DNA of 56,048 nt from Gammaproteobacteria bacterium (GTDB taxonomy: Bacteria; Pseudomonadota; Gammaproteobacteria; SURF-13), in contig JAURVQ010000039.1 in the NCBI GenBank assembly GCA_030655395.1, positions 1 to 56,048 on the forward strand, written 5' to 3'. Both the position numbers and the translations under genes were made by a program. The notes beneath the pieces were generated by a model that ran no database searches, was not told the DNA's origin, and saw only the letters and a list, made by a program, of their open reading frames with translations. Positions 331 to 9,396 of this stretch are shown here, piece by piece. Numbering within the stretch: the first letter of the stretch is position 1; each line of letters starts with the position of its first letter.

Positions 331-417
331 AGGGTTGCGAAGCCGTTGTTCATCAAGGTGGTTGTCACTTTTTAAAGCGGCCTTTTTTTGAGGATAAAGG
401 GTTCGGGAATTCCAAGT

Positions 418-743
418 AGAATTCCGGGGATCGGGTCTTGCATTGCAACATTCGTCGGATTCATGTCGCGCTTTACCGCCAGTGTTTCCGCTCGGACCTC
501 GCGAGTGTTTTGGGCGGCAGTTGCTGCACGCGCTTCTCGACCTCTGCGCCATGCGCAAATCATTACCGTTCAACCTATTACGCCACGCGTAATATATCAA
601 GCGAAATGATCGAGGCCCCAGCGCGTTGTCAGCATATGCGCGGCAGCGGGTCGTCTTCCAGTTCTTGCAGTATGCGGCTGCCGCCGAGCGGTGTCTCCAG
701 TACGACGTGCGGTTTGGCGCCCGTCACCTGCCCGATGATGGCG
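418..743. repeat. Left copy of direct repeat (hypE 3' end plus downstream spacer)
   Basis: 455-484 and 556-743 align almost base for base with 2975-3004 and 3012-3199. The left copy carries an extra ~70 nt (485-555). Weaker similarity extends back to ~418 versus ~2948. Confidence 0.85.
629..743 (-). pseudogene. hypE: hypE 3' fragment (last 38 codons, no 5' part)
   Basis: Reverse-strand translation gives ...IIGQVTGAKPHVVLETPLGGSRILQELEDDPLPRIC*. Intact HypE ends ...IIGQVTAAKPHVVLETPLGGSRVLQELEDDPLPRIC* at 3085. Similarity stops abruptly at 743/3199. Confidence 0.85.
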
Positions 744-798
744 CGCTTGCCATTGACGATGGCGCTCTTGACGGAAGTCGTCACCTCTCATCTCCTCC

Positions 799-1872
799 TT
801 ACACATCCTCCCGCGTCAAGATGGTGTTCAGCGCGATGTTGATGTAGTAGTTCGAGCGGCCGATTTTTTTCTTTTGTAGAAAGCCGCCCGCTGTCAGTGC
901 ATCCAGATATTTGGTGGCGGTCAGGCGCGAGACTTTGAGGTCGTGTTCGACGAATTCGATCTTGGTGTAGGGGTGGGTGAACAGGTTATTGATCAAGTCC
1001 TGGCTGTAGAACTTGTAGCCAGCACGAATGCGGTGCTTGTAGTCCATGAGCGCGGCCTTGATGTCTGCCAGGGTGGTGATGGTTTGCCGCGCCGTTTCTT
1101 CGACGGCGGTGAGCATATAGAGTACCCATTCTTCCCAGCGCTGGTCGTCTCGCACGCTTTGCAGCAGGCGGTAGTAATCGGGCTTGGTGCGCACGATGTG
1201 ACGCGACAGGTAAAGCACTGGAATATCCAGCAGGCCCTTTTGCACCAGATACAGCACGTTGATGATGCGGCCCGTGCGGCCGTTGCCGTCGTAAAACGGG
1301 TGAATGCTTTCAAACTGGTGATGGATGAGCGCCATCTTGATCAGCGGGTCGGCAGCAAACGCGCTGTCATCGTTGATGAAGCGCTCCAGGTCGCGCATCA
1401 GGGTGATGATGGTGTCCGGATTTTGCGGCGGGGTGTATACCGTATCGCCAAGGCTGTTCTTGAGCGCGGTGCCGGGCAGTTTGCGAAAACCGGCTTTATT
1501 TTTCTCGAGTTCGGCCTGGATTTCGATTATGTGGTTGGCGGTGAGCAGGCCGGTCTGCTTGACGCGCTCGTAGCCAATGCGCAGCGCCTGGATGTAGTGG
1601 CGCACTTCCTTGGCGGCGGGGTTGCCCGCCAGTTCGGGGAAGGCATTGCTTTTGAACAACTCGTCGTGGCTGGTGACGATATTTTCAATGGCCGAGCTGT
1701 CCTTGGCCTCCTGCATGGCCAAGCTGTTGATGAGGATGCCCTGATCGGGAATGGAGGCCGCCAGCCCCTTGAGCTCGGCCAGCTTGCGGCTGGCCGTGGT
1801 AGTCTTTTTGAGAATGGCTGGGGTTTCAAACTGCGCAGCCTTGAGCCTGCTGAGTGCGCTAAGCTCGCTCAT
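799..1872 (-). CDS. fic: Fic family protein (AMPylase-type, with N-terminal inhibitory helix)
   Basis: Catalytic motif HPFYDGNGRTGR. The Fic_N-like region holds the inhibitory motif SSAIEN ([ST]xxxE[GN]). Start placed at MSELSALSRL (ATG 1872) rather than the ORF-track maximum of 1896. Confidence 0.9.
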   Translation of the reverse strand: MSELSALSRLKAAQFETPAILKKTTTASRKLAELKGLAASIPDQGILINSLAMQEAKDSSAIENIVTSHDELFKSNAFPELAGNPAAKEVRHYIQALRIGYERVKQTGLLTANHIIEIQAELEKNKAGFRKLPGTALKNSLGDTVYTPPQNPDTIITLMRDLERFINDDSAFAADPLIKMALIHHQFESIHPFYDGNGRTGRIINVLYLVQKGLLDIPVLYLSRHIVRTKPDYYRLLQSVRDDQRWEEWVLYMLTAVEETARQTITTLADIKAALMDYKHRIRAGYKFYSQDLINNLFTHPYTKIEFVEHDLKVSRLTATKYLDALTAGGFLQKKKIGRSNYYINIALNTILTREDV

Positions 1873-1916
1873 AACCGCACCGCCGCAGGCGACCATGCGA
1901 GAGAAAGCAGCGATTT

Positions 1917-1987
1917 TCTATACATATCGAGCATAACGTGTATAGATAATAAGTGTTTTCTATACACATGTCACGCGACTTGTATAG
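1917..1987. promoter_or_regulatory. Four phased TCTATACA / TGTATAGA sites upstream of fic (putative operator array)
   Basis: TCTATACA at 1917-1924 and 1959-1966. Inverted TGTATAG(A) at 1939-1946 and 1981-1987. Spacings are 22/20/22 bp, 45-115 bp upstream of the fic ATG. Confidence 0.5.
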
Positions 1988-2297
1988 TTTAAGGTGATAT
2001 CTCGCAGGCATTTGCGCAATAAGCGCCTGCATAGCCCTGCTGGTTGTTCTGGTTGTGGCGCCACCGCTTTCCCCCTCATCTCCACTGGCTTTCTCATTTA
2101 CCGAGAACCGTGTTCGCTCGGGCTACTCCGTGGCCGTGCCGCGCCACGTTACTTCCTCATAACTTGTAGCGGCGATGATATATCGTAACTGCGGATGGGC
2201 CAGAAAGACAGGACGGCGAATTTGGGTAAGCCGGAACCAGCGCTGTCCGACTCTACTCATGGCTTGGGGCCTCACTCAAAAGTGCCACATATTGCTT

Positions 2298-2322
2298 GGA
2301 TAATATCCGTTGACGATATTAT
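2298..2322. promoter_or_regulatory. Inverted repeat overlapping a TTGACG -35-like element in the higBA promoter (putative HigA operator)
   Basis: GGATAATATC cgttgac GATATTATC lies 23-47 bp upstream of the higB GTG. Confidence 0.5.
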
Positions 2323-2344
2323 CTTGATGGGATAACATTCTTCC

Positions 2345-2626
2345 GTGATCAAGACCTTTAAGTGCAAGGAAACCGAGGCACTTTTTTATGGCCGCTTTTC
2401 CGCTAAATTGCCGCAGGCGATTCAGCGCAAAGCGGTGATTAAACTCAACATGCTGCATGCCGCTACCCGTCTGGACACATTGCGTGTGCCGCCGTCGAAT
2501 CATTTAGAAGTGCTGCGCGGGGACAGGAAGGGCCGGCACAGTATCCGCATCAATGAGCAATGGCGGGTTTGTTTCGTGTGGCGAGGCAACAATGCCTTTG
2601 AAGTCGAGATTGTTGATTACCATTGA
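2345..2626 (+). CDS. higB: HigB-type toxin (RelE/ParE superfamily plasmid-maintenance killer)
   Basis: MIKTFKCKETEALFYG...RINEQWRVCFVWRGNNAFEVEIVDYH is a typical HigB sequence. GTG start. The toxin precedes the antitoxin, as in hig loci. Confidence 0.85.
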   Translation: MIKTFKCKETEALFYGRFSAKLPQAIQRKAVIKLNMLHAATRLDTLRVPPSNHLEVLRGDRKGRHSIRINEQWRVCFVWRGNNAFEVEIVDYH

Positions 2627-2635
2627 GGTGAAGCT

Positions 2636-2938
2636 ATGACCAAGCGCGATTTCCCACCGATTCATCCCGGCGAAGTTCTGTTGACAGAGTTTCTTGAACC
2701 CTTGGGCGTGAGCCAGTACCGGCTTGCCAAGAGCATTAAGGTTACGCCGCGCCGCATCAATGAAATTGCACATGGCCGCCGCGCCATTACTGCGGATACC
2801 GCGCTCCGGCTCGGCCGGTTTTTCGGCATGGAGGCAGAGTTCTGGCTTAACTTACAGTCTCATTACGATATGGAAATCGCGCAAGCGGCCTTGAATGGCC
2901 GTCTTGAAAAAGACGTGCAGCCTTTAAAAGCCGCGTAG
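2636..2938 (+). CDS. higA: HigA-type antitoxin (XRE-family HTH)
   Basis: IHPGEVLLTEFLEPLGVSQYRLAKSIKVTPRRINEIAHGRRAITADTALRLGRFFG is the canonical HigA/VapI HTH. It starts 10 nt after higB. Confidence 0.9.
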   Translation: MTKRDFPPIHPGEVLLTEFLEPLGVSQYRLAKSIKVTPRRINEIAHGRRAITADTALRLGRFFGMEAEFWLNLQSHYDMEIAQAALNGRLEKDVQPLKAA

Positions 2939-2947
2939 TAGACAAAT

Positions 2948-3199
2948 AATCCGGACTCGACAACTCCGCACAATTCCGGATTCATGTTGCGCTTTACCGC
3001 CACTGGTCATTGCAGATCATTGCCGTTCAACCTATTACGCCACGCGTAACATATCAAGTGAAATAATCGAGCCCCAGCGCGTTGTCAGCAAATGCGCGGC
3101 AACGGGTCGTCTTCCAGTTCTTGCAGCACGCGGCTGCCGCCGAGCGGTGTCTCCAGTACGACGTGCGGTTTGGCGGCCGTCACCTGGCCGATGATGGCG
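2948..3199. repeat. Right copy of direct repeat (overlaps the 3' end of intact hypE)
   Basis: See the left copy at 418-743. Begins right after the higA stop. Confidence 0.85.
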
Positions 3200-4089
3200 G
3201 CTTCGTTGCCGGGCGGTAATGCGCGCCACGCGGCAAGTGCCGCGTCGGCCTGGTCGGGCGCCAGCACCGCGACCACGCGCCCTTCGCAGGCGAGATAGAG
3301 CGGGTCGTAGCCGAGGATGTCGCACACCGTGCGTACTGCGGCGCGCACCGGGATGGCGCTCTCCTTGAGGTGCAGGCCCAATCCCGTGGCGCGGCAGATG
3401 TCGTGCGCGACGGTGGCAAGCCCGCCGCGCGTCGGGTCGCGCATGAAGCGCAATCCCGGAAATGCATGCAGCGCGTGCGTGAGCGGCAGCACGCAGGCGA
3501 GGTCCGACTGGACGCTGCCGCTCAAGCCGAACTGCTCGCGCGCGAGCATCACGGCAACGGCGTGGTCGCCCACCGGGCCGCTCACCAGAATGACGTCGCC
3601 TTCCTGTATCCGGTTTATGCCCAAGCGCAATTGCGGATCGCGCACGCCGACGCCGCTGGTGGCGAGATACAATCCGCCGCCTTCGCCGCGCGGCACCACC
3701 TTGGTGTCGCCCGCCACTACACACACCCCTGTTTCCCGCGCCGCGCGCGCCAGGCTTTCGACAATGCGGGTGAGTCGCGCGATTTCGAATCCCTCCTCAA
3801 TGAAGGTGTTGAGGCTGAGATAGAGCGGTGTCGCGCCCGCGACGGCAAGATCGTTCACCGTGCCGTGCACCGCAAGCGCACCGATGTCGCCGCCGGGAAA
3901 TTCCAGCGGCTGCACGATGAAGCCATCGGTGGTCAGCATGATGTCTCCCGCAGGCAAGGTGAGCGGGACGGCATCGGCCTGGATATCGAGCGCCGGATTC
4001 GCGAGGTGGCGCGCGAACAGTTCCTCAACCAGTTCGCGCATGTAGCGTCCACCGTTGCCGTGGGCGAGGGTGATGTGGGTATCCTGCAT
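3085..4089 (-). CDS. hypE: Hydrogenase maturation protein HypE
   Basis: MQDTHITLAHGNGG... PurM-like fold sequence and the C-terminal PRIC motif. The ATGA overlaps the hypF stop. Confidence 0.95.
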   Translation of the reverse strand: MQDTHITLAHGNGGRYMRELVEELFARHLANPALDIQADAVPLTLPAGDIMLTTDGFIVQPLEFPGGDIGALAVHGTVNDLAVAGATPLYLSLNTFIEEGFEIARLTRIVESLARAARETGVCVVAGDTKVVPRGEGGGLYLATSGVGVRDPQLRLGINRIQEGDVILVSGPVGDHAVAVMLAREQFGLSGSVQSDLACVLPLTHALHAFPGLRFMRDPTRGGLATVAHDICRATGLGLHLKESAIPVRAAVRTVCDILGYDPLYLACEGRVVAVLAPDQADAALAAWRALPPGNEAAIIGQVTAAKPHVVLETPLGGSRVLQELEDDPLPRIC

Positions 4090-6383
4090 CAGCGCTGTGC
4101 CGCCTCGATGATCTGTCCGTAACTGAGCCCGCCGTCATTGCAGGGGACACGGCGCGGAAGATGGACGGCAAACCCGTCGTCCTGCAACAGCTGCAGCGCG
4201 TGTTCGGTGAGAATGCAGTTTTGAAATACGCCGCCGCTCAGGCCCACGTCGTTTACGCCGTGTTCATCGCGCAACACGCGCGCCTGTTGCAGCAGCGCGT
4301 GCGCGAGGCTCGCGTGAAAAATACTCGCGCGTTCCACGACGGGAATATGTTCATCAAGTAACAGCGGCACGAGCGGCGCCCAGTCGGTGTGCCAGAGGCC
4401 CTGCGCGTTGCGCTGCAACGGCAAGGCGACAGGTTGCGCGCCCGCACTGCTGATCGCCTCCAGAGTCATCGGCCCCTGCCCTTCAAAGCTGGCATTTTGT
4501 ACCAGGCCGAGCAGCGCGGCGGCGGCATCAAACAATCGGCCCACCGCGCTGGTTTGCGGCGCGTTGATGCGCCGTTGCCAAGCGTGCTGCAGCAGCGCGG
4601 TATCTTCCATCGGGCCGTTGAGCCATACCTGATTCGATTCCCAGCACAGGGCGAGCGCGCTGCGCCACGGTTCGCGCGCGGACTTTTCGCCGCCGGGGAG
4701 ATGAAACGGCCGTATGCTGGCCGCGCGCCGCCAGTGCCCGGCGCCGCCCAGCAAGGCCTCGCCGCCCCACAGGGTGCCGTCCTCACCCAGGCCCACACCG
4801 TCCCAGGTAAACACCAGCCAGTTTTTTATCGCGGGGAATTCGCCCGCGACGCCGGAGGCATGTGCGTGATGATGCCAGACCTGCGTCAGCGACAACCCGC
4901 TGCGCCTGTTCCAGCGCCGGGCCCAGCGTGTGCCGGCGTAATCGGGATGCGCATCACACAGGATTTTTTCGGCGCGTACGCCGTAGAGCGCTTGCATATC
5001 TTCGATCACCTGCTCGAATACTTCGAGACCGCGCGGCGTTCCGAGGTCGCCGATGTGCGGCGAGATCACCACGCGGTTGTGCCAGGCGAGCGCAACGGTA
5101 TTTTTGCTGTGACCGCCGGTCGCAAGCACGGGCCGGGACAACTCAAACGGCAGCTCCAGTTCCAGCGGCGCGCAGCCCCGACCGAGGCGCAACGGACGCG
5201 GCTGTCCGGCAATGACGCGAAACACGGCGTCGTCTGCCGGGCGCTGTATGGGGCGGTCGTGATGCAGGAAGGCATCGGCCACGTGCGCGAGGCGCGTTTG
5301 CGCATCACTGTTGTTGGTGAGCACCGGTTCGCCGCTGACATTGGCGGAGGTGGCGACGAGCGGTGCGCCAAAATCCTCGAGCAGCAGATGATGCAAGGGA
5401 CTGTAGGGCAGCAGGGTGCCGATTTCATCCAGGCCGGGCGCGATGTGTGTGGAGAGATTCGCTGCGCTGCGTTTGGTGACGAGCACAATCGGCCGCATGG
5501 GGTCGCGCAGTAGTTGCGCCGCAATCGCGTCGAGTTGTGCCGCCTCACGCACGGCATCAAGGCCGTCTGCCCCATGCATGGGAAACATCACGGCGAGCGG
5601 CTTGTGCGGACGCGGCTTGGTGGTGCGCAACCGCAGCACGGCGTCGTCGTTGCGTGCATCGCACATCAGGTGATAGCCGCCGACACCCTTCACGGCGACG
5701 ATTTTTCCCTCACGCAGTGCGGCCACGCACGCGGCAAGCGCGGCGGCACCGGTGACGGTTTCATCCGCTGCTGTTTTAAACGACAGTTGCGGGCCACACG
5801 CGGGACAGGCGAGCGGCTCGGCATGAAAGCGCCGGTTCAGTGGATTTTGATATTCTGCGCGGCACTGCGCGCACAACGCAAACCCCGCGAGCGTGGTGTT
5901 GCTGCGGTCATAGGGCAGGCGGCAGATGACGGTATAGCGCGGGCCGCATTGGGTACAGTTGATGAAGGGGTAACGGTAGCGGCGGTCGCCGGGATCATGC
6001 AGCTCGGCGAGACAGTCCGCGCAGGTGAAATAATCGGGCGCGAGGTGTATGTGTGCGGGCGCGCATTCCGCGCTCGGCAAAATGCTGAATTGCTCCAGCG
6101 GCTGCGCTGACGCGTATTCACACGACAGTACGCGCGGCTGTGCGAGTGGCGGCGCATCGCTCAACAGCCGATGGCCGAACTGTTCAAGTGATGCGCCGTC
6201 GCCCTGCGCGAATATCTCCACGTGGCCGGAACGGTTCCTCACCCAGCCGCAAAGACCGCAGTGATGTGCGAGACGGTACACGAAGGGACGGAAACCCACG
6301 CCCTGCACGCGCCCCGCCAGCACCCATCTGCGCGCGCAATGGGTAGCGACGGATGCGGGCAATGGCGCTGCGGTCATGGGCAT
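4089..6383 (-). CDS. hypF: Carbamoyltransferase HypF
   Basis: 764 aa with an acylphosphatase-like N-terminus (GRVQGVGFRPFV), two CxxC...CxxC zinc fingers, and YrdC and Kae1-like parts. Confidence 0.95.
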   Translation of the reverse strand: MPMTAAPLPASVATHCARRWVLAGRVQGVGFRPFVYRLAHHCGLCGWVRNRSGHVEIFAQGDGASLEQFGHRLLSDAPPLAQPRVLSCEYASAQPLEQFSILPSAECAPAHIHLAPDYFTCADCLAELHDPGDRRYRYPFINCTQCGPRYTVICRLPYDRSNTTLAGFALCAQCRAEYQNPLNRRFHAEPLACPACGPQLSFKTAADETVTGAAALAACVAALREGKIVAVKGVGGYHLMCDARNDDAVLRLRTTKPRPHKPLAVMFPMHGADGLDAVREAAQLDAIAAQLLRDPMRPIVLVTKRSAANLSTHIAPGLDEIGTLLPYSPLHHLLLEDFGAPLVATSANVSGEPVLTNNSDAQTRLAHVADAFLHHDRPIQRPADDAVFRVIAGQPRPLRLGRGCAPLELELPFELSRPVLATGGHSKNTVALAWHNRVVISPHIGDLGTPRGLEVFEQVIEDMQALYGVRAEKILCDAHPDYAGTRWARRWNRRSGLSLTQVWHHHAHASGVAGEFPAIKNWLVFTWDGVGLGEDGTLWGGEALLGGAGHWRRAASIRPFHLPGGEKSAREPWRSALALCWESNQVWLNGPMEDTALLQHAWQRRINAPQTSAVGRLFDAAAALLGLVQNASFEGQGPMTLEAISSAGAQPVALPLQRNAQGLWHTDWAPLVPLLLDEHIPVVERASIFHASLAHALLQQARVLRDEHGVNDVGLSGGVFQNCILTEHALQLLQDDGFAVHLPRRVPCNDGGLSYGQIIEAAQR

Positions 6384-6454
6384 AGCCTGAGAGATGTAAA
6401 CGCTTTCAAACTAGCATAAGCTTAATCCCATAACCATATAACGCGAGTGATTCG

Positions 6455-6889
6455 ATGAGTAAAAAAACCCGCACCAGAAACGGGCCGTCGAGCGTGCTCG
6501 ATGGCGTGGAGGCATCCCTGCCCGCGCTCGCGCACGCTATGGAGTTTCAGCGCCGCGTCGCCGCCGTCGGCTTCGATTGGCCGCAGGTGAGTCAGGTGCT
6601 GGAAAAGATCGAGGAGGAGCTGCAGGAAATCCGCCACGAAATCAGGGAGGCCGCGGGCCACGACAGGCTGGAGGATGAAATCGGCGATCTGCTGTTCGTG
6701 TGCGTCAACCTTGCGCGCCACATGAAAGTGAATCCGGAGCACGCGTTGCAGCGGGCCAACGCGAAGTTCGAGCGCCGCTTTCGCCGCATCGAGGAGATGC
6801 TCGCGCAGAGCGGGCGTGGGCCGCACGATTCCACCCTGGAAGAAATGGACGACCTGTGGAATCAGGTGAAGTCCGAGGAAAGAGCCTGA
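6455..6889 (+). CDS. MazG-family nucleoside triphosphate pyrophosphohydrolase (single domain)
   Basis: EEELQEIRHEI...EDEIGDLLFVCVNLARHMKVNPEHALQRANAKFERRF. Confidence 0.8.
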   Translation: MSKKTRTRNGPSSVLDGVEASLPALAHAMEFQRRVAAVGFDWPQVSQVLEKIEEELQEIRHEIREAAGHDRLEDEIGDLLFVCVNLARHMKVNPEHALQRANAKFERRFRRIEEMLAQSGRGPHDSTLEEMDDLWNQVKSEERA

Positions 6890-6915: not shown

Positions 6916-9396
6916 TCACATCTCCCGCATTATGGCCTGTAGTCTGTCGGTGACCTCCACGATGGAATCGCGGCGGCTGAATTTGACGGGTGCGCCGAAG
7001 CGTACCGTGACCACGCCGCGTCTTCTGGGCATGATCCTGGCGCAAGGCACAATGGTGTTTGTGCCGCTGATTTTCAGCGGCACGACACAGGTATCCGCTG
7101 CGATGGCGATGAGGCCGGCGCCGCGCTGTAGCGGAAGCAGGGCGCCGCTTTCGCTCATCCTTCCCTCCGGGTAAACGACCACGCACCAGCCCCGGTCCAG
7201 CAGCCTGCCCGCATAATCGAGGCCGTGTTGGATGTGCTCGTGTTCGTGGCGCGGGAAGGGAAAGGTATTGAAGGCAAACTCCAGCAGCCAGGCGACATGT
7301 CTGAATTCCCCATAGACCACGTCCTGCGCCGCGGCGAAGGCCAGTCGTTTCCGGATGCGATAGGGCAAGGCCATCAACACGGCGAGGGAGTCGAGATAGC
7401 TCGTGTGATTGGGCATGAAGACGGCGGGCAGCTGAAGCGTATCGAGATGCTCAAGTCCCTCAATCTTGAGTTTCATGAAGATGCGCACCAACGGAAACAC
7501 CAGCAGGGATTGCAGCGCAGTTCTCAGCCAGGACACCCAGCGCGTCAGCAGCCAGCCCTTGAAGCGCTGCCTTGCCCGTGGCGCGCTTGCCGCGCGGATC
7601 ATCGCATCGAGTTGCGCAACCGTGGTGGTGTGGGTGATCTCCGTTTCATCAACGACAACGCCGAAACGTTCCTCGATGCGCGTCACCAGTTCGATGCGCA
7701 GCAGTGAATCCAGATTAAGTTCCGCCACCAGTTGCGTGGCGTCAGTGATGCGCGCAAGCGGCTGGCCGGTGAGCGAAGCCAGCAGGCGCATGAGTGCGGT
7801 TTTCTCGCCGTGAGCGGCAGCCTCGACGCCTGTGTTGTGCGTTATAAGGTGGGCCATCACCGGTTCGCGCTTTATCTTGTGCGTGGCGGAGCGCGGAAAG
7901 TCGTCGTGCGGCCAGAGTGACCAGCTCGTGATGCGCTGATACGATGCAAGCCGCTGGTTGGCGGCGGCGATAATGTCGGCCATGTGCGCGTCTGGCGCCG
8001 AAGAATCGATCAACACCACGGCGTGGATATCGACGTGGCCGCCCGGCTTGTCTAGCCCCAGTACGCAGCTATCCTTTACGCCGGAAATTTTATTGAGCTC
8101 GCCCTCGATGTCTTCGGGATAGACGTTCTGGGCGCCGGGGCCCTTGATCATGTATTTCTTTCTGCCCTTGATATACAAAAATCCGTCCTGATCCAGTGCC
8201 CCGATATCGCCGGTGAGAAACCATCCCTCCGCGTCGAACGCCGCGCACGTCTTTTGCTCGTTGTTAAAGTAGCCGAGGAATACATTCGGCCCCTTGACCA
8301 GTATCTCCCCGTCGGCGGCGATCTTGACGGCAACGCCCGGCAAGGCGCGCCCCACTGTGCCGGTGCGATGATGCTGGCGGGAGTTGTTGGCCACCACGGG
8401 CGAGGTCTCGGTGAGGCCGTAACCCTGTAACAGGGTGATGCCCAGCGCTTCCCATTTTTGTTCCAGCTCCACGTCGAGCGGCGCGCCGCCGCAGGCGATG
8501 GTGTCCAGCCTGCCGCCCAATGTTTTGTGTACCGGAAAAAACAACAGGCGTTGCAGCGGCTTGAGGGAGAGGCGCTGCGACATACGCCGCCAAGCCGCGA
8601 GCGGAAAATGGCTTGCCGCCGCACGCTCCTCGATTTTACTCATCATCACCTTGAGGAACTCGGGTACGGCGACCATTTTTGTGATGCGGTGCTGCGCGAG
8701 CAGACCGGCAATCGCCGCGGGCGTGGGGGCAAACACGATGCACGCGCCGGCGGTGAACGGCAGCAGAAACCCGGCCGTCTGCTCCAGGATATGGCTCAAG
8801 GGGAGAATGGAGAGCAGGCGGTCTTGGGTCGAGAGCGGGATGCTTGCGGCGAGCGCGCTCACGTTGGAGTACAGATTGGCATGCGTGAGCATCACCCCCT
8901 TCGGCTCGCCCGTGGTGCCGGAGGTGTACATGATTTCGATCAGATCATGTTCCAACGCCTGCACCTTTTTGAACGCAGCAGCGTTAATGCCGGAAACCTC
9001 TTCCTTGATGAGTTCGATGTCGTAAACCGGCACACCACCGGGCAGTGCTTCTTTGAGGTACCGGTATTTGAAAATGATCTTCGCGCCGGTGTGGTTGACG
9101 ATATCAGCGATCATCTGCGCGGTGCTCTGGATATTAAGCGGCACCACCACCGCGCCGCACAGCAGCGTGGCCCAGAACACGCAAATCCAGTAAGGCGAGT
9201 TGGGGGCCAGCACGATCACGCGGTCGCCCCGCGTTACGCCGCGCTGCTGGAGCAGGCAGGCGATTTTGCGCGCGAGCTCATGCGCCTCGCGGTAATTCAG
9301 CGTCACGGTGCGGTAGCCCATGCGCATGACCAGTGCGGTACGCTCAGGGAATTCCTGCGCGCTTCGTTCCAGAATGTGCGTCAGCAGCATCGTCAA
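6916..9396 (-). CDS. Tri-domain fusion: AMP-dependent acyl ligase + carrier (PP-binding) domain + PlsC-type acyltransferase
   Basis: Adenylation motif YTSGTTGEPKGVMLTH. Carrier motif ELNLDSLLRIELV. Acyltransferase motifs NHTSYLD (HX4D) and VYPEGRMS. Confidence 0.85.
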   Translation of the reverse strand: MTMLLTHILERSAQEFPERTALVMRMGYRTVTLNYREAHELARKIACLLQQRGVTRGDRVIVLAPNSPYWICVFWATLLCGAVVVPLNIQSTAQMIADIVNHTGAKIIFKYRYLKEALPGGVPVYDIELIKEEVSGINAAAFKKVQALEHDLIEIMYTSGTTGEPKGVMLTHANLYSNVSALAASIPLSTQDRLLSILPLSHILEQTAGFLLPFTAGACIVFAPTPAAIAGLLAQHRITKMVAVPEFLKVMMSKIEERAAASHFPLAAWRRMSQRLSLKPLQRLLFFPVHKTLGGRLDTIACGGAPLDVELEQKWEALGITLLQGYGLTETSPVVANNSRQHHRTGTVGRALPGVAVKIAADGEILVKGPNVFLGYFNNEQKTCAAFDAEGWFLTGDIGALDQDGFLYIKGRKKYMIKGPGAQNVYPEDIEGELNKISGVKDSCVLGLDKPGGHVDIHAVVLIDSSAPDAHMADIIAAANQRLASYQRITSWSLWPHDDFPRSATHKIKREPVMAHLITHNTGVEAAAHGEKTALMRLLASLTGQPLARITDATQLVAELNLDSLLRIELVTRIEERFGVVVDETEITHTTTVAQLDAMIRAASAPRARQRFKGWLLTRWVSWLRTALQSLLVFPLVRIFMKLKIEGLEHLDTLQLPAVFMPNHTSYLDSLAVLMALPYRIRKRLAFAAAQDVVYGEFRHVAWLLEFAFNTFPFPRHEHEHIQHGLDYAGRLLDRGWCVVVYPEGRMSESGALLPLQRGAGLIAIAADTCVVPLKISGTNTIVPCARIMPRRRGVVTVRFGAPVKFSRRDSIVEVTDRLQAIMREM

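Follow-up and report, generated by a model that had tools for sequence, protein, structure and literature searches.

We analysed a 56,048-nucleotide (nt) stretch of DNA from a Gammaproteobacteria bacterium, hereafter the window, which is the entire NCBI record of contig JAURVQ010000039.1, so that its left end is the end of the assembly. Near that end, downstream of the maturation gene hypE, lies a group of toxin-antitoxin (TA) and defence genes bracketed by a direct repeat that includes the hypE 3' end. Read in the direction of hypE, this gene is followed by a first decayed copy of a TA module named higB2A2, by an inverted higBA, by a non-coding filler and by a SoFic-type fic gene; after fic come a scrap of higA2 joined to a displaced hypE 3' end (hypE'), a second decayed higB2A2 and the gene of an HNH endonuclease (Table 1). 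The guanine-plus-cytosine (GC) content is 51-58% up to position ~3000 and 63-71% in hypE and hypF, and the window contains no tRNA genes. A first-pass annotation, made from the sequence alone, had read the arrangement as foreign DNA starting at the hypE 3' end, which the GC step bears out, and as the product of site-specific integration there. We consider it probable instead that a SoFic/HigBA/HNH defence islet at a hypE-linked hotspot was remodelled by homologous and illegitimate recombination (3'-end displacement) and then by decay of toxin genes.

Table 1. Features at the hypE end of the window, in window coordinates.
Feature	Position	Strand	Details
HNH_2 restriction-like endonuclease, first 110 codons	1-330	-	runs off the contig end; PADLOC HNH, E 6.6e-21
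F2, conserved 3' flank of higB2A2	413-505	-	88-99% identity to what lies 3' of higA2 in L163, L164, L165 and L002
higB2A2 copy 2, wreck	506-563	-	aligned with intact higB2-higA2 of L163, and with L002
P2, putative promoter/operator region of higB2A2	555-607	-	-35-like TTGATA; palindrome TTACGC-CAC-GCGTAA at 578-592
hypE', displaced hypE 3' end	608-743	-	38 codons and stop at 629-743; 21-nt hypE-P spacer at 608-628
higA2 internal fragment, 31 nt	736-766	-	codons for SAIVNGKRAI; 94-97% identical to L163 1182-1215, L165 and L002
SoFic cassette	767-1997	-	truncated 3' flank 767-798, fic 799-1896, putative promoter/operator 1897-1997
Filler X, non-coding	1998-2238	.	between fic and higBA; found in L283, X4 and X9 but not in L280 or L002
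higBA cassette	2239-2938	+	promoter-like site 2310-2338, higB 2345-2626, higA 2636-2938; converges on hypE
F1 and higB2A2 copy 1, wreck	2939-3011	-	2977-3005 matches F2 at 456-484; 27-nt core lost
P1 and spacer to hypE stop	3012-3084	-	P1 3012-3066, palindrome 3035-3049; 58/64 identical to P2
hypE	3085-4089	-	intact; TIGR02124, 377 bits; last 115 nt (3085-3199) form the right-hand repeat
hypF	4089-6383	-	backbone gene upstream of hypE; TIGR00143, 727 bits

The direct repeat consists of three collinear blocks in direct orientation, located by a repeat search and counted directly: 456-484 with 2977-3005 (27 of 29 positions identical), 555-618 with 3012-3075 (58 of 64) and 615-743 with 3071-3199 (123 of 129). 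The two copies, 456-743 and 2977-3199, enclose fic, higB and higA and are far above chance, the other repeat families within 6 kb reaching at most 32 nt at 72-89% identity. They are 91-95% identical and have no exact core in common at their ends. The duplication of the hypE 3' end around the three genes therefore stands as first annotated, and so do the two residue differences between the encoded HypE C-termini (TAAK/TGAK and SRVL/SRIL, both tails ending in PRIC and stop) and the distance of 56 nt from the fic stop to the repeat edge. On the right-hand side the repeat had been placed ~10 nt past the higA stop, but clear similarity starts only 37-39 nt past it. The left copy does contain 70 extra nt (485-554), which had been called an insertion; because they align, among all copies, with the 3' end of higA2, they are a surviving piece of that gene, and the left copy is simply less deleted than the right.

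For comparison we used a GTDB metagenome-assembled genome (L002), contigs from Logan, ENA and JGI to which HigA2 homologues and members of the Fic 90% cluster had led (L163-165 and L275-284), and the assembled contigs of eight metagenome runs (X1, X2, X4, X6, X9, X12, X13 and X17). X1 is a source-like run with a depth of ~9x, and its Logan contig ends 20 nt past the window's left end. These relatives reveal that the repeated "spacer" consists of the two ends of higB2A2, a third TA module that L163 and L283 retain intact at the same place as the window repeat. The order of the intact module is P (a putative promoter/operator), higB2 (92 amino acids (aa), starting ATGATC), higA2 (101 aa) and F (the 3' flank). 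P carries a -35-like TTGAYA and a palindrome, TTACGC-N3-GCGTAA, in the relatives, and lies directly 5' of the higB2 ATG in L163, L283 and L164 and directly 5' of higA2 in L002 and L280; TA autoregulation suggests that it acts as an operator. Strains in runs X2 and X4 have a TAAT insertion within the P1 palindrome (window position 3046).

Judged by these alignments, both window copies are wrecks of one module, gutted by different microhomology deletions. Copy 2 runs from the higB2 start, ATGATTTG (556-563), directly into approximately the final 17 codons of higA2 (520-555). Another 16 nt have been deleted between 9-nt GGCGCAGAG repeats, the stop codon is lost, and F follows. In copy 1 (window 3012-2977) the alignment of all copies places P and the first three higB2 codons in fusion with F via two deletions, with the junction ATGATCTGCA/ATGACCAGTGGCGG/TAAAGCG at 2990-3020; the L002 orthologue of F1 still has part of the 27-nt core. 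The toxin gene higB2 is gone from both window copies, and no third copy of P or F was found elsewhere in the 56-kb contig. The repeat is thus mostly a decayed higB2A2 module plus a hypE tail, and not an empty att site.

At the inner edge of the left copy, hypE' is joined to the higA2 scrap through an 8-nt microhomology, CGCCATCA (736-743), and the same 8-mer is present in hypE at 3192-3199. The reading frame continues from the higA2 fragment into the left hypE tail, and the fragment in turn abuts the fic 3' flank at 767. Joints of this kind look illegitimate, of the microhomology type, rather than like a recombinase core. The fusion also creates a chimeric open reading frame (ORF) of 51 codons (629-784, minus strand; GTG-...SAIVNGKRAI/IGQVT...PRIC and stop), which lies 14 nt past the fic stop and is preceded by a GGAGG motif; translation, if any, would yield a free HypE C-terminal tail with the catalytic cysteine.

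The two hypE tails of the window are, from their bases, different alleles and not a fresh copy one of the other. The left tail and the distal hypE' of L002 both have CATACTGCAAG, which the resident hypE of the window lacks; that distal hypE' is itself of window type, not of L002 type, and has derived bases in common with the window's left tail. Between window and L002, identity is ~96% from 2239 to ~3125 and then drops to 70-80%, the step lying ~40 nt before the hypE stop. The common block therefore includes the last ~40 nt of hypE, which agrees with the replacement 3' end proposed in the first-pass annotation. The hypE of L280 is of L002 type (134 of 147) up to about -135 and of window type beyond it (63 of 70 and 45 of 45). 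Since the breakpoints vary (~-40 and ~-135), the islet and hypE 3' ends of varying length would have moved between lineages by differently placed crossovers. Such differing crossovers are a prediction of homologous recombination, and a fixed att core would not give them.

Duplication and cargo proved separable when the gene orders of the relatives were compared, and four arrangements were found (S1 to S4). In S1 (L280-282, X12 and X13) hypE is followed by P and the 5' half of higA2, which is joined to an F fragment and fic, with neither higBA nor hypE' on these contigs; a higBA homologue is located elsewhere. S2 (L283, L163, X4 and the major form of X2) has the order hypE, P1F1, higBA, X, fic, flank, F', intact higB2A2 and F, after which come the HNH gene (L163) or a gene for a 655-aa protein (L283), and hypE' is lacking. 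S3 is the arrangement of the window, with hypE', and was found also in X1 and in the minor form of X2. In S4 (L002) hypE, P1F1 and higBA are joined to hypE', P, an orphan higA2, F and an IS3 remnant, and fic is lacking; hypE' here reaches -180, against -115 in the window, and has a 63-nt internal deletion. Two forms occur side by side in run X2, one of window type (depth ~6) and one without hypE' (depth ~50). Relatives with the duplication but without the module had been named in advance as speaking against an inserted island, and the outcome is mixed: there are relatives with the duplication that lack the full module, and others with the module that lack the duplication. The IS3 remnant of L002, directly after F2 (3535-3730), consists of the C-terminus of an IS3-family transposase (rve_2) and an insertion sequence end, and its words reach depths of 832-6822 in runs X9 and X6; the high depth of 3634-3730 had suggested an attC family, but this part is the end of the IS3-family remnant.

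No ORF with a recombinase domain lies between the repeat copies, as had been noted at first pass, where an integrase and a possible third repeat copy were expected to the left. In L163, 1.85 kb past the point corresponding to the window's left end contained no recombinase; this extension encodes a 327-aa HNH protein, followed by a frameshifted Fic/Doc gene. Neither was a recombinase found in the complete 7-kb island of L283, which reaches E1-dehydrogenase backbone genes and contains only TA and defence genes and unknowns. Joints of an excised circle or an empty site were absent from the contigs of the eight runs, in which rare variants drop out. The repeat edges differ between strains, where an att island would have fixed boundaries. 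The expected integrase just beyond the window is thus not supported by the L163 extension and the L283 island, nor are site-specific att repeats supported, given the decayed TA module, the microhomology edge with higA2 and the strain-dependent junctions. Of the tandem accretion at one att site that had been suggested, the accretion of several cassettes is supported and the site-specific att is not. At the far boundary of the L283 island (7990-8230), beside the E1-dehydrogenase genes, there is a long palindrome with perfect arms, GGAACCGTTGATTAATTC...GAATTAATCAACGGTTCC.

Remodelling by 3'-end displacement would have proceeded as follows. Incoming DNA of a related strain would have carried its own hypE 3' end together with the higB2A2 that normally follows hypE. 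A homologous crossover within the conserved end of hypE may then have been combined with illegitimate joining of the far end of the donor DNA, the joint forming at a short microhomology that precedes the stop codon of the resident hypE. With the joint in that position, the tail of the resident gene would have been pushed downstream, along with the higB2A2 copy behind it, and not replaced. The redundant TA copies would subsequently have decayed toxin first, microhomology or slippage deletions removing both higB2 genes and most of higA2; by alignment, these deletions left P and F remnants that resemble a repeated spacer. The window contains what displacement should leave behind, namely a hypE anchor, visible in the identity steps, the 8-nt CGCCATCA joint, and a displaced tail kept together with a higB2A2 copy. 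The anatomy, the variability between strains, the hypE breakpoints and the microhomologies at the joints can be read from the alignments, and from them we infer donor anchoring, illegitimate joining, displacement and toxin-first decay. Once formed, repeats of 225-290 nt could permit RecA-dependent loss of the cargo.

Several points weigh against this scenario. The islet lies 3' of hypE in genomes with 20-25% hypE divergence, which could indicate targeted integration, and homologous recombination is inefficient across divergence of that order; the hypE crossovers nonetheless fall within the terminal 45-135 nt of the gene, which are the best conserved. More than one order of events would fit the data, and at least one duplication or insertion and at least three deletions are required. 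As the window ends at the assembly end, an integrase may lie farther left in this genome. The comparison was made on contigs only, with ~9x in the source-like run, and would miss rare excision products. Finally, the cassette junctions cluster just past F, a clustering that purely homologous and illegitimate recombination does not predict.

F is an element of ~65-90 nt with a 27-nt core, which at 427-453 of the window reads GGGGATCGGGTCTTGCATTGCAACATTC on the plus strand, and a GGGG/CCCC terminus; the core is also written GGGGTCAGGTCTTGCATTGCAACATTC, and its ends are ...GAATGTTGCAATGCAAGACCYGAYCCC / ...GAATGTTGCAATGCAAGACCTGACCCC. Copies were mapped by nhmmer. The 27-nt core is found at window 427-453, L002 3508-3534, L163 678-704 and 1415-1441, L275 6372, 9123 and 12365, and in L246-L274, and it recurs base for base in Proteobacteria, Actinomycetota, Omnitrophota, Nitrospirota and Chloroflexota. 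The 19-nt centre of the core is exact in 30 GTDB genome stretches from many phyla, with ~4 expected by chance; conservation in these stretches halts at CCCC, and some copies are inverted-repeat mini-elements of 53-212 nt. Within the island family F has a 65-nt form after higA2 and a ~175-nt form after fic; the copies are in direct orientation, and past the terminus the sequence usually gives way within 10-30 nt to unrelated DNA. The 53 kb of backbone in the window contain no copy. F had no match in Rfam, in plasmid collections or in the literature, its core had 0 matches in viral contigs, and the P pattern had 0 matches in JGI metagenomes. An associated enzyme, target duplications, a significant fold or a conserved ORF were not found for F.

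Three known types of element were considered for F, of which the first two were rejected and the third seems unlikely. Ends resembling attC in L002 had prompted the integron reading. In an attC site an R'' (RYYYAAC) and an R' (GTTRRRY) pair up to form an imperfect hairpin; single-strand folds of F, P and the candidate sites in L002 scored no better than shuffled sequence (z -1.5 to +0.8), RNAalifold gave 9 pairs, none of them compensatory, and there is no intI. The inverted repeat of Tn3-family transposons and TIME-type miniature inverted-repeat transposable elements is ~38 bp long, starts with GGGG, ends in ...ACGYTAAG and is flanked by a 5-bp target duplication. F has the GGGG, but its core is only ~27 nt long, and TAAG, target duplications and plasmid matches are lacking. 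Repetitive extragenic palindromic (REP) elements are short palindromes with many copies per genome and a cognate Y1 transposase, the REP-associated tyrosine transposase (RAYT). Some F copies are 53-63-nt hairpins, and a Y1-type gene fragment lies 45 nt from the core in L269 and at no other F locus, so that the association holds for only 1 of ~30 loci. F could be a selfish mini-element carried along by the TA module, or a recombination site; that it is the recombination or terminal site of an undescribed system, acting in trans to move small TA and defence cassettes, with the hypE-linked islet as one of its arrays, we regard as a long shot. F is the only part of the locus with wider potential.

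Among the alternatives to displacement, cassette shuffling at F comes first, although we judge it unlikely. F would then be the end or recombination site of an unrecognised system mobilised in trans, and hypE' a by-product. This would account for the position of F 3' of higB2A2 in five contexts, with different DNA in each within ~10-30 nt of CCCC, for the second F-type copy that closes the fic cassette in L163, L275, L277 and L283, and for the three direct copies that punctuate the L275 island; the tandem reiteration of the terminus in L257 and L268, the excess of exact 19-nt cores and the inverted-repeat mini-elements point the same way. However, neither a transposase nor a recombinase is consistently adjacent to F, target-site duplications, a significant hairpin and covariation are lacking, and plasmid and viral collections, Rfam and the literature gave no match to F. 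Moreover, some junctions lie within F and not at its end (L280), the homology between L275 and L277 runs straight across an F copy, and shuffling at F leaves the hypE' fragment and the microhomology junctions unaccounted for.

A purely local event would require no recombinase. Within one chromosome, two occurrences of CGCCATCA, in hypE and in a downstream higA2, would have undergone unequal crossover or slipped replication, producing a ~3.5-kb tandem duplication that deletions later trimmed; the microhomology lies exactly at the repeat edge, and in L163 and L283 a higA2 follows fic in an orientation suitable as partner. Yet the left hypE tail is a different allele whose derived bases recur in the distal copy of L002, and the tail of L280 is at least as close to it as is the window's own hypE. 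At least two further large deletions, removing a whole second higBA and fic, would have to be assumed, and the L002 junction, where -180 is joined to the higBA boundary, looks independent. A local crossover is possible but seems to fit the allele data less well than displacement does, and we regard it as quite improbable. That one or more integrase-type islands inserted site-specifically in the hypE 3' end, the repeats being attL and attR and the recombinase lying beyond the window, is very unlikely: the repeat does include the 3' end of an intact gene, the laterally common block extends over the final ~40 nt of hypE, the islet is linked to hypE in backbones that diverge from one another (window, L002, L280 and L283) and GC falls at the hypE stop, but the repeat is a decayed TA module plus hypE tail with a higA2 microhomology as its edge and no exact core at the ends of its 91-95% identical copies, boundaries and hypE crossover points vary between strains and lineages, some of which carry the cargo without hypE', and recombinase and excision joints were missing from the L163 extension and complete L283 island and from the contigs of the eight runs, respectively.

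Taken together, the hypE locus would be a defence and TA hotspot with a displacement scar, of an already known kind. A direct repeat that includes the 3' end of a gene is the textbook signature of an integrase island, and the locus resembles the islands found at tRNA, tmRNA and protein gene 3' ends in its gene-end repeat, its replacement end and the GC step at the stop. It differs from them in that no integrase was found, the repeat edges vary, the cargo cassettes occur independently elsewhere, and the repeat, 225-290 nt long and diverged, is mostly a decayed TA module. Integrons and clusters of attC sites lacking integron-integrases (CALINs) likewise hold short promoter-bearing TA and defence cassettes in series, and the recurring ~65-nt F, in one orientation near 3' ends, recalls their attC sites; unlike them, the locus has no intI (hypE takes that position, and L283 has no integrase), and F has no R''/R' pair, attC hairpin or covariation. 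The clustering of SoFic, HigB/HigA, the HNH nuclease and the Fic/Doc remnant beside a core gene is like that of defence hotspots without mobility genes of their own, and the fic cassette also occurs in other islands, alongside restriction-modification (RM), ParE and BrnT systems.

Arrays of orphan immunity genes and orphaned 3' regions have been described at Rhs, contact-dependent inhibition (CDI) and type VI secretion system (T6SS) effector-immunity loci, with homology-facilitated illegitimate recombination (HFIR) as the proposed mechanism (PMC5361080 and references therein). As in those arrays, new cargo at hypE appears to be anchored by homology in a conserved gene upstream of it, the previous 3' end appears to be displaced downstream and kept together with a protective partner (the antitoxin gene higA2, orphaned in L002 and L280), the junctions look illegitimate, an integrase is lacking and arrays vary between close strains. 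The displacement mechanism is deduced in both cases. Unlike those loci, the anchor hypE is a housekeeping maturation gene and not a polymorphic toxin, its displaced tail has no toxin function, and the cargo consists of TA and defence cassettes. A direct repeat with a gene 3' end may thus also arise by homologous and illegitimate recombination at a defence or TA hotspot, at hypE enlarged by a decayed, portable TA module, and this locus would be mislabelled by annotators or island-finding tools that infer att sites from repeats of this kind. Outside polymorphic-toxin loci, TA modules may provide homology that is portable, and orphan antitoxins may serve as "immunity" that is kept. In practical terms the gain is confined to the correct annotation of one SoFic/HigBA/HNH islet.

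The cargo had been described as a single Fic and HigBA module. Because fic and higBA each occur separately elsewhere, the fic cassette in unrelated islands, they are instead independent cassettes with their own promoters. The fic product contains Fic_N, Fic and SoFic-like_C domains (Pfam) and matches SoFic over its full length in PADLOC (E 2.7e-116); its translation shows HPFYDGNGRTGR (HPFxxGNGR core) and SSAIEN, an N-terminal inhibitory (S/T)xxxE(G/N) motif, as expected of the SoFic type. Its NCBIfam equivalog score of 350 bits is below the cutoff of 550, and it is therefore a family member, not an equivalog. The cassette recurs with 95-96% identity and the same ends (767/1994-1997) in L275, L277, L279 and L280, in unrelated contexts; the islands of L275 and L277 contain PLD, PRK, ParE, BrnT and type III or MmeI-like RM genes. 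Distant fic loci have only the gene and operator in common with the window, and a plasmid search with the whole module matched only fic. A promoter-like site lies upstream of fic (1974-1946), with TATACA-type inverted repeats within 1897-1997. Half-sites TTTTCTATACA / TGTATAG are repeated in 1904-1997, overlapping the promoter-like site, and are kept 5' of distant fic genes (L006, L027 and L062); they probably form an operator for the winged-helix C-terminal domain of SoFic. By family, SoFic is predicted to be an AMPylating abortive-infection toxin, HigB and HigA an mRNA-interferase toxin and its antitoxin, and the HNH protein a restriction-like nuclease.

Unlike in the SoFic loci of relatives, the 3' flank of fic in the window is cut 32 nt past the stop (767-798), whereas relatives keep ~240 nt (L163 468-710, L283 3110-3350). 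This longer flank holds a 47-codon ORF of the same size and position as AS1, an anti-SoFic gene reported for the SoFic of E. coli (PMC12249575). As a conserved small protein, which would have made F a small-protein gene, the ORF was rejected, with 3 relatives in 5.8 billion proteins, frameshifts and variable stops; it had no match in Pfam or NCBIfam and no nucleotide match in E. coli, and a tie to AS1 is unproven. Within the filler, a 75-nt piece (2144-2220) matches L275 10247-10322, L277 5062-5114 and L165 2152-2185, where its homologue adjoins the PRK-family (uridine-kinase-like) gene that follows fic, which suggests that it is a permuted remnant of another cassette.

In the higBA cassette, higB matches PF05015 (E 1.8e-16) and higA matches HTH_3 and TIGR02607 (113 bits, cutoff 47.7), and higB lies directly 5' of higA with a 9-nt gap, the arrangement of a type II HigBA. 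The cassette is ~96% identical to that of L002, with its left boundary at 2239, and a copy with 89% identity occurs in X12 and X13 between unrelated flanks. In a related strain of run X6, 248 nt of higB are deleted (window 2279-2526), which inactivates the toxin gene.

The restriction-like gene seen at the left end at first pass proved to be the N-terminus of a 327-aa HNH_2 endonuclease, because its 110 residues are identical to the L163 protein, which has this full length and carries PF13391. The nearest HNH relative in JGI data, L166, lies in different TA and restriction endonuclease surroundings again. On the other side of the islet, the hypF stop and the hypE start overlap (ATGA, 4086-4092), so that at this locus hypE directly follows hypF, with neither hypC nor hypD between them.

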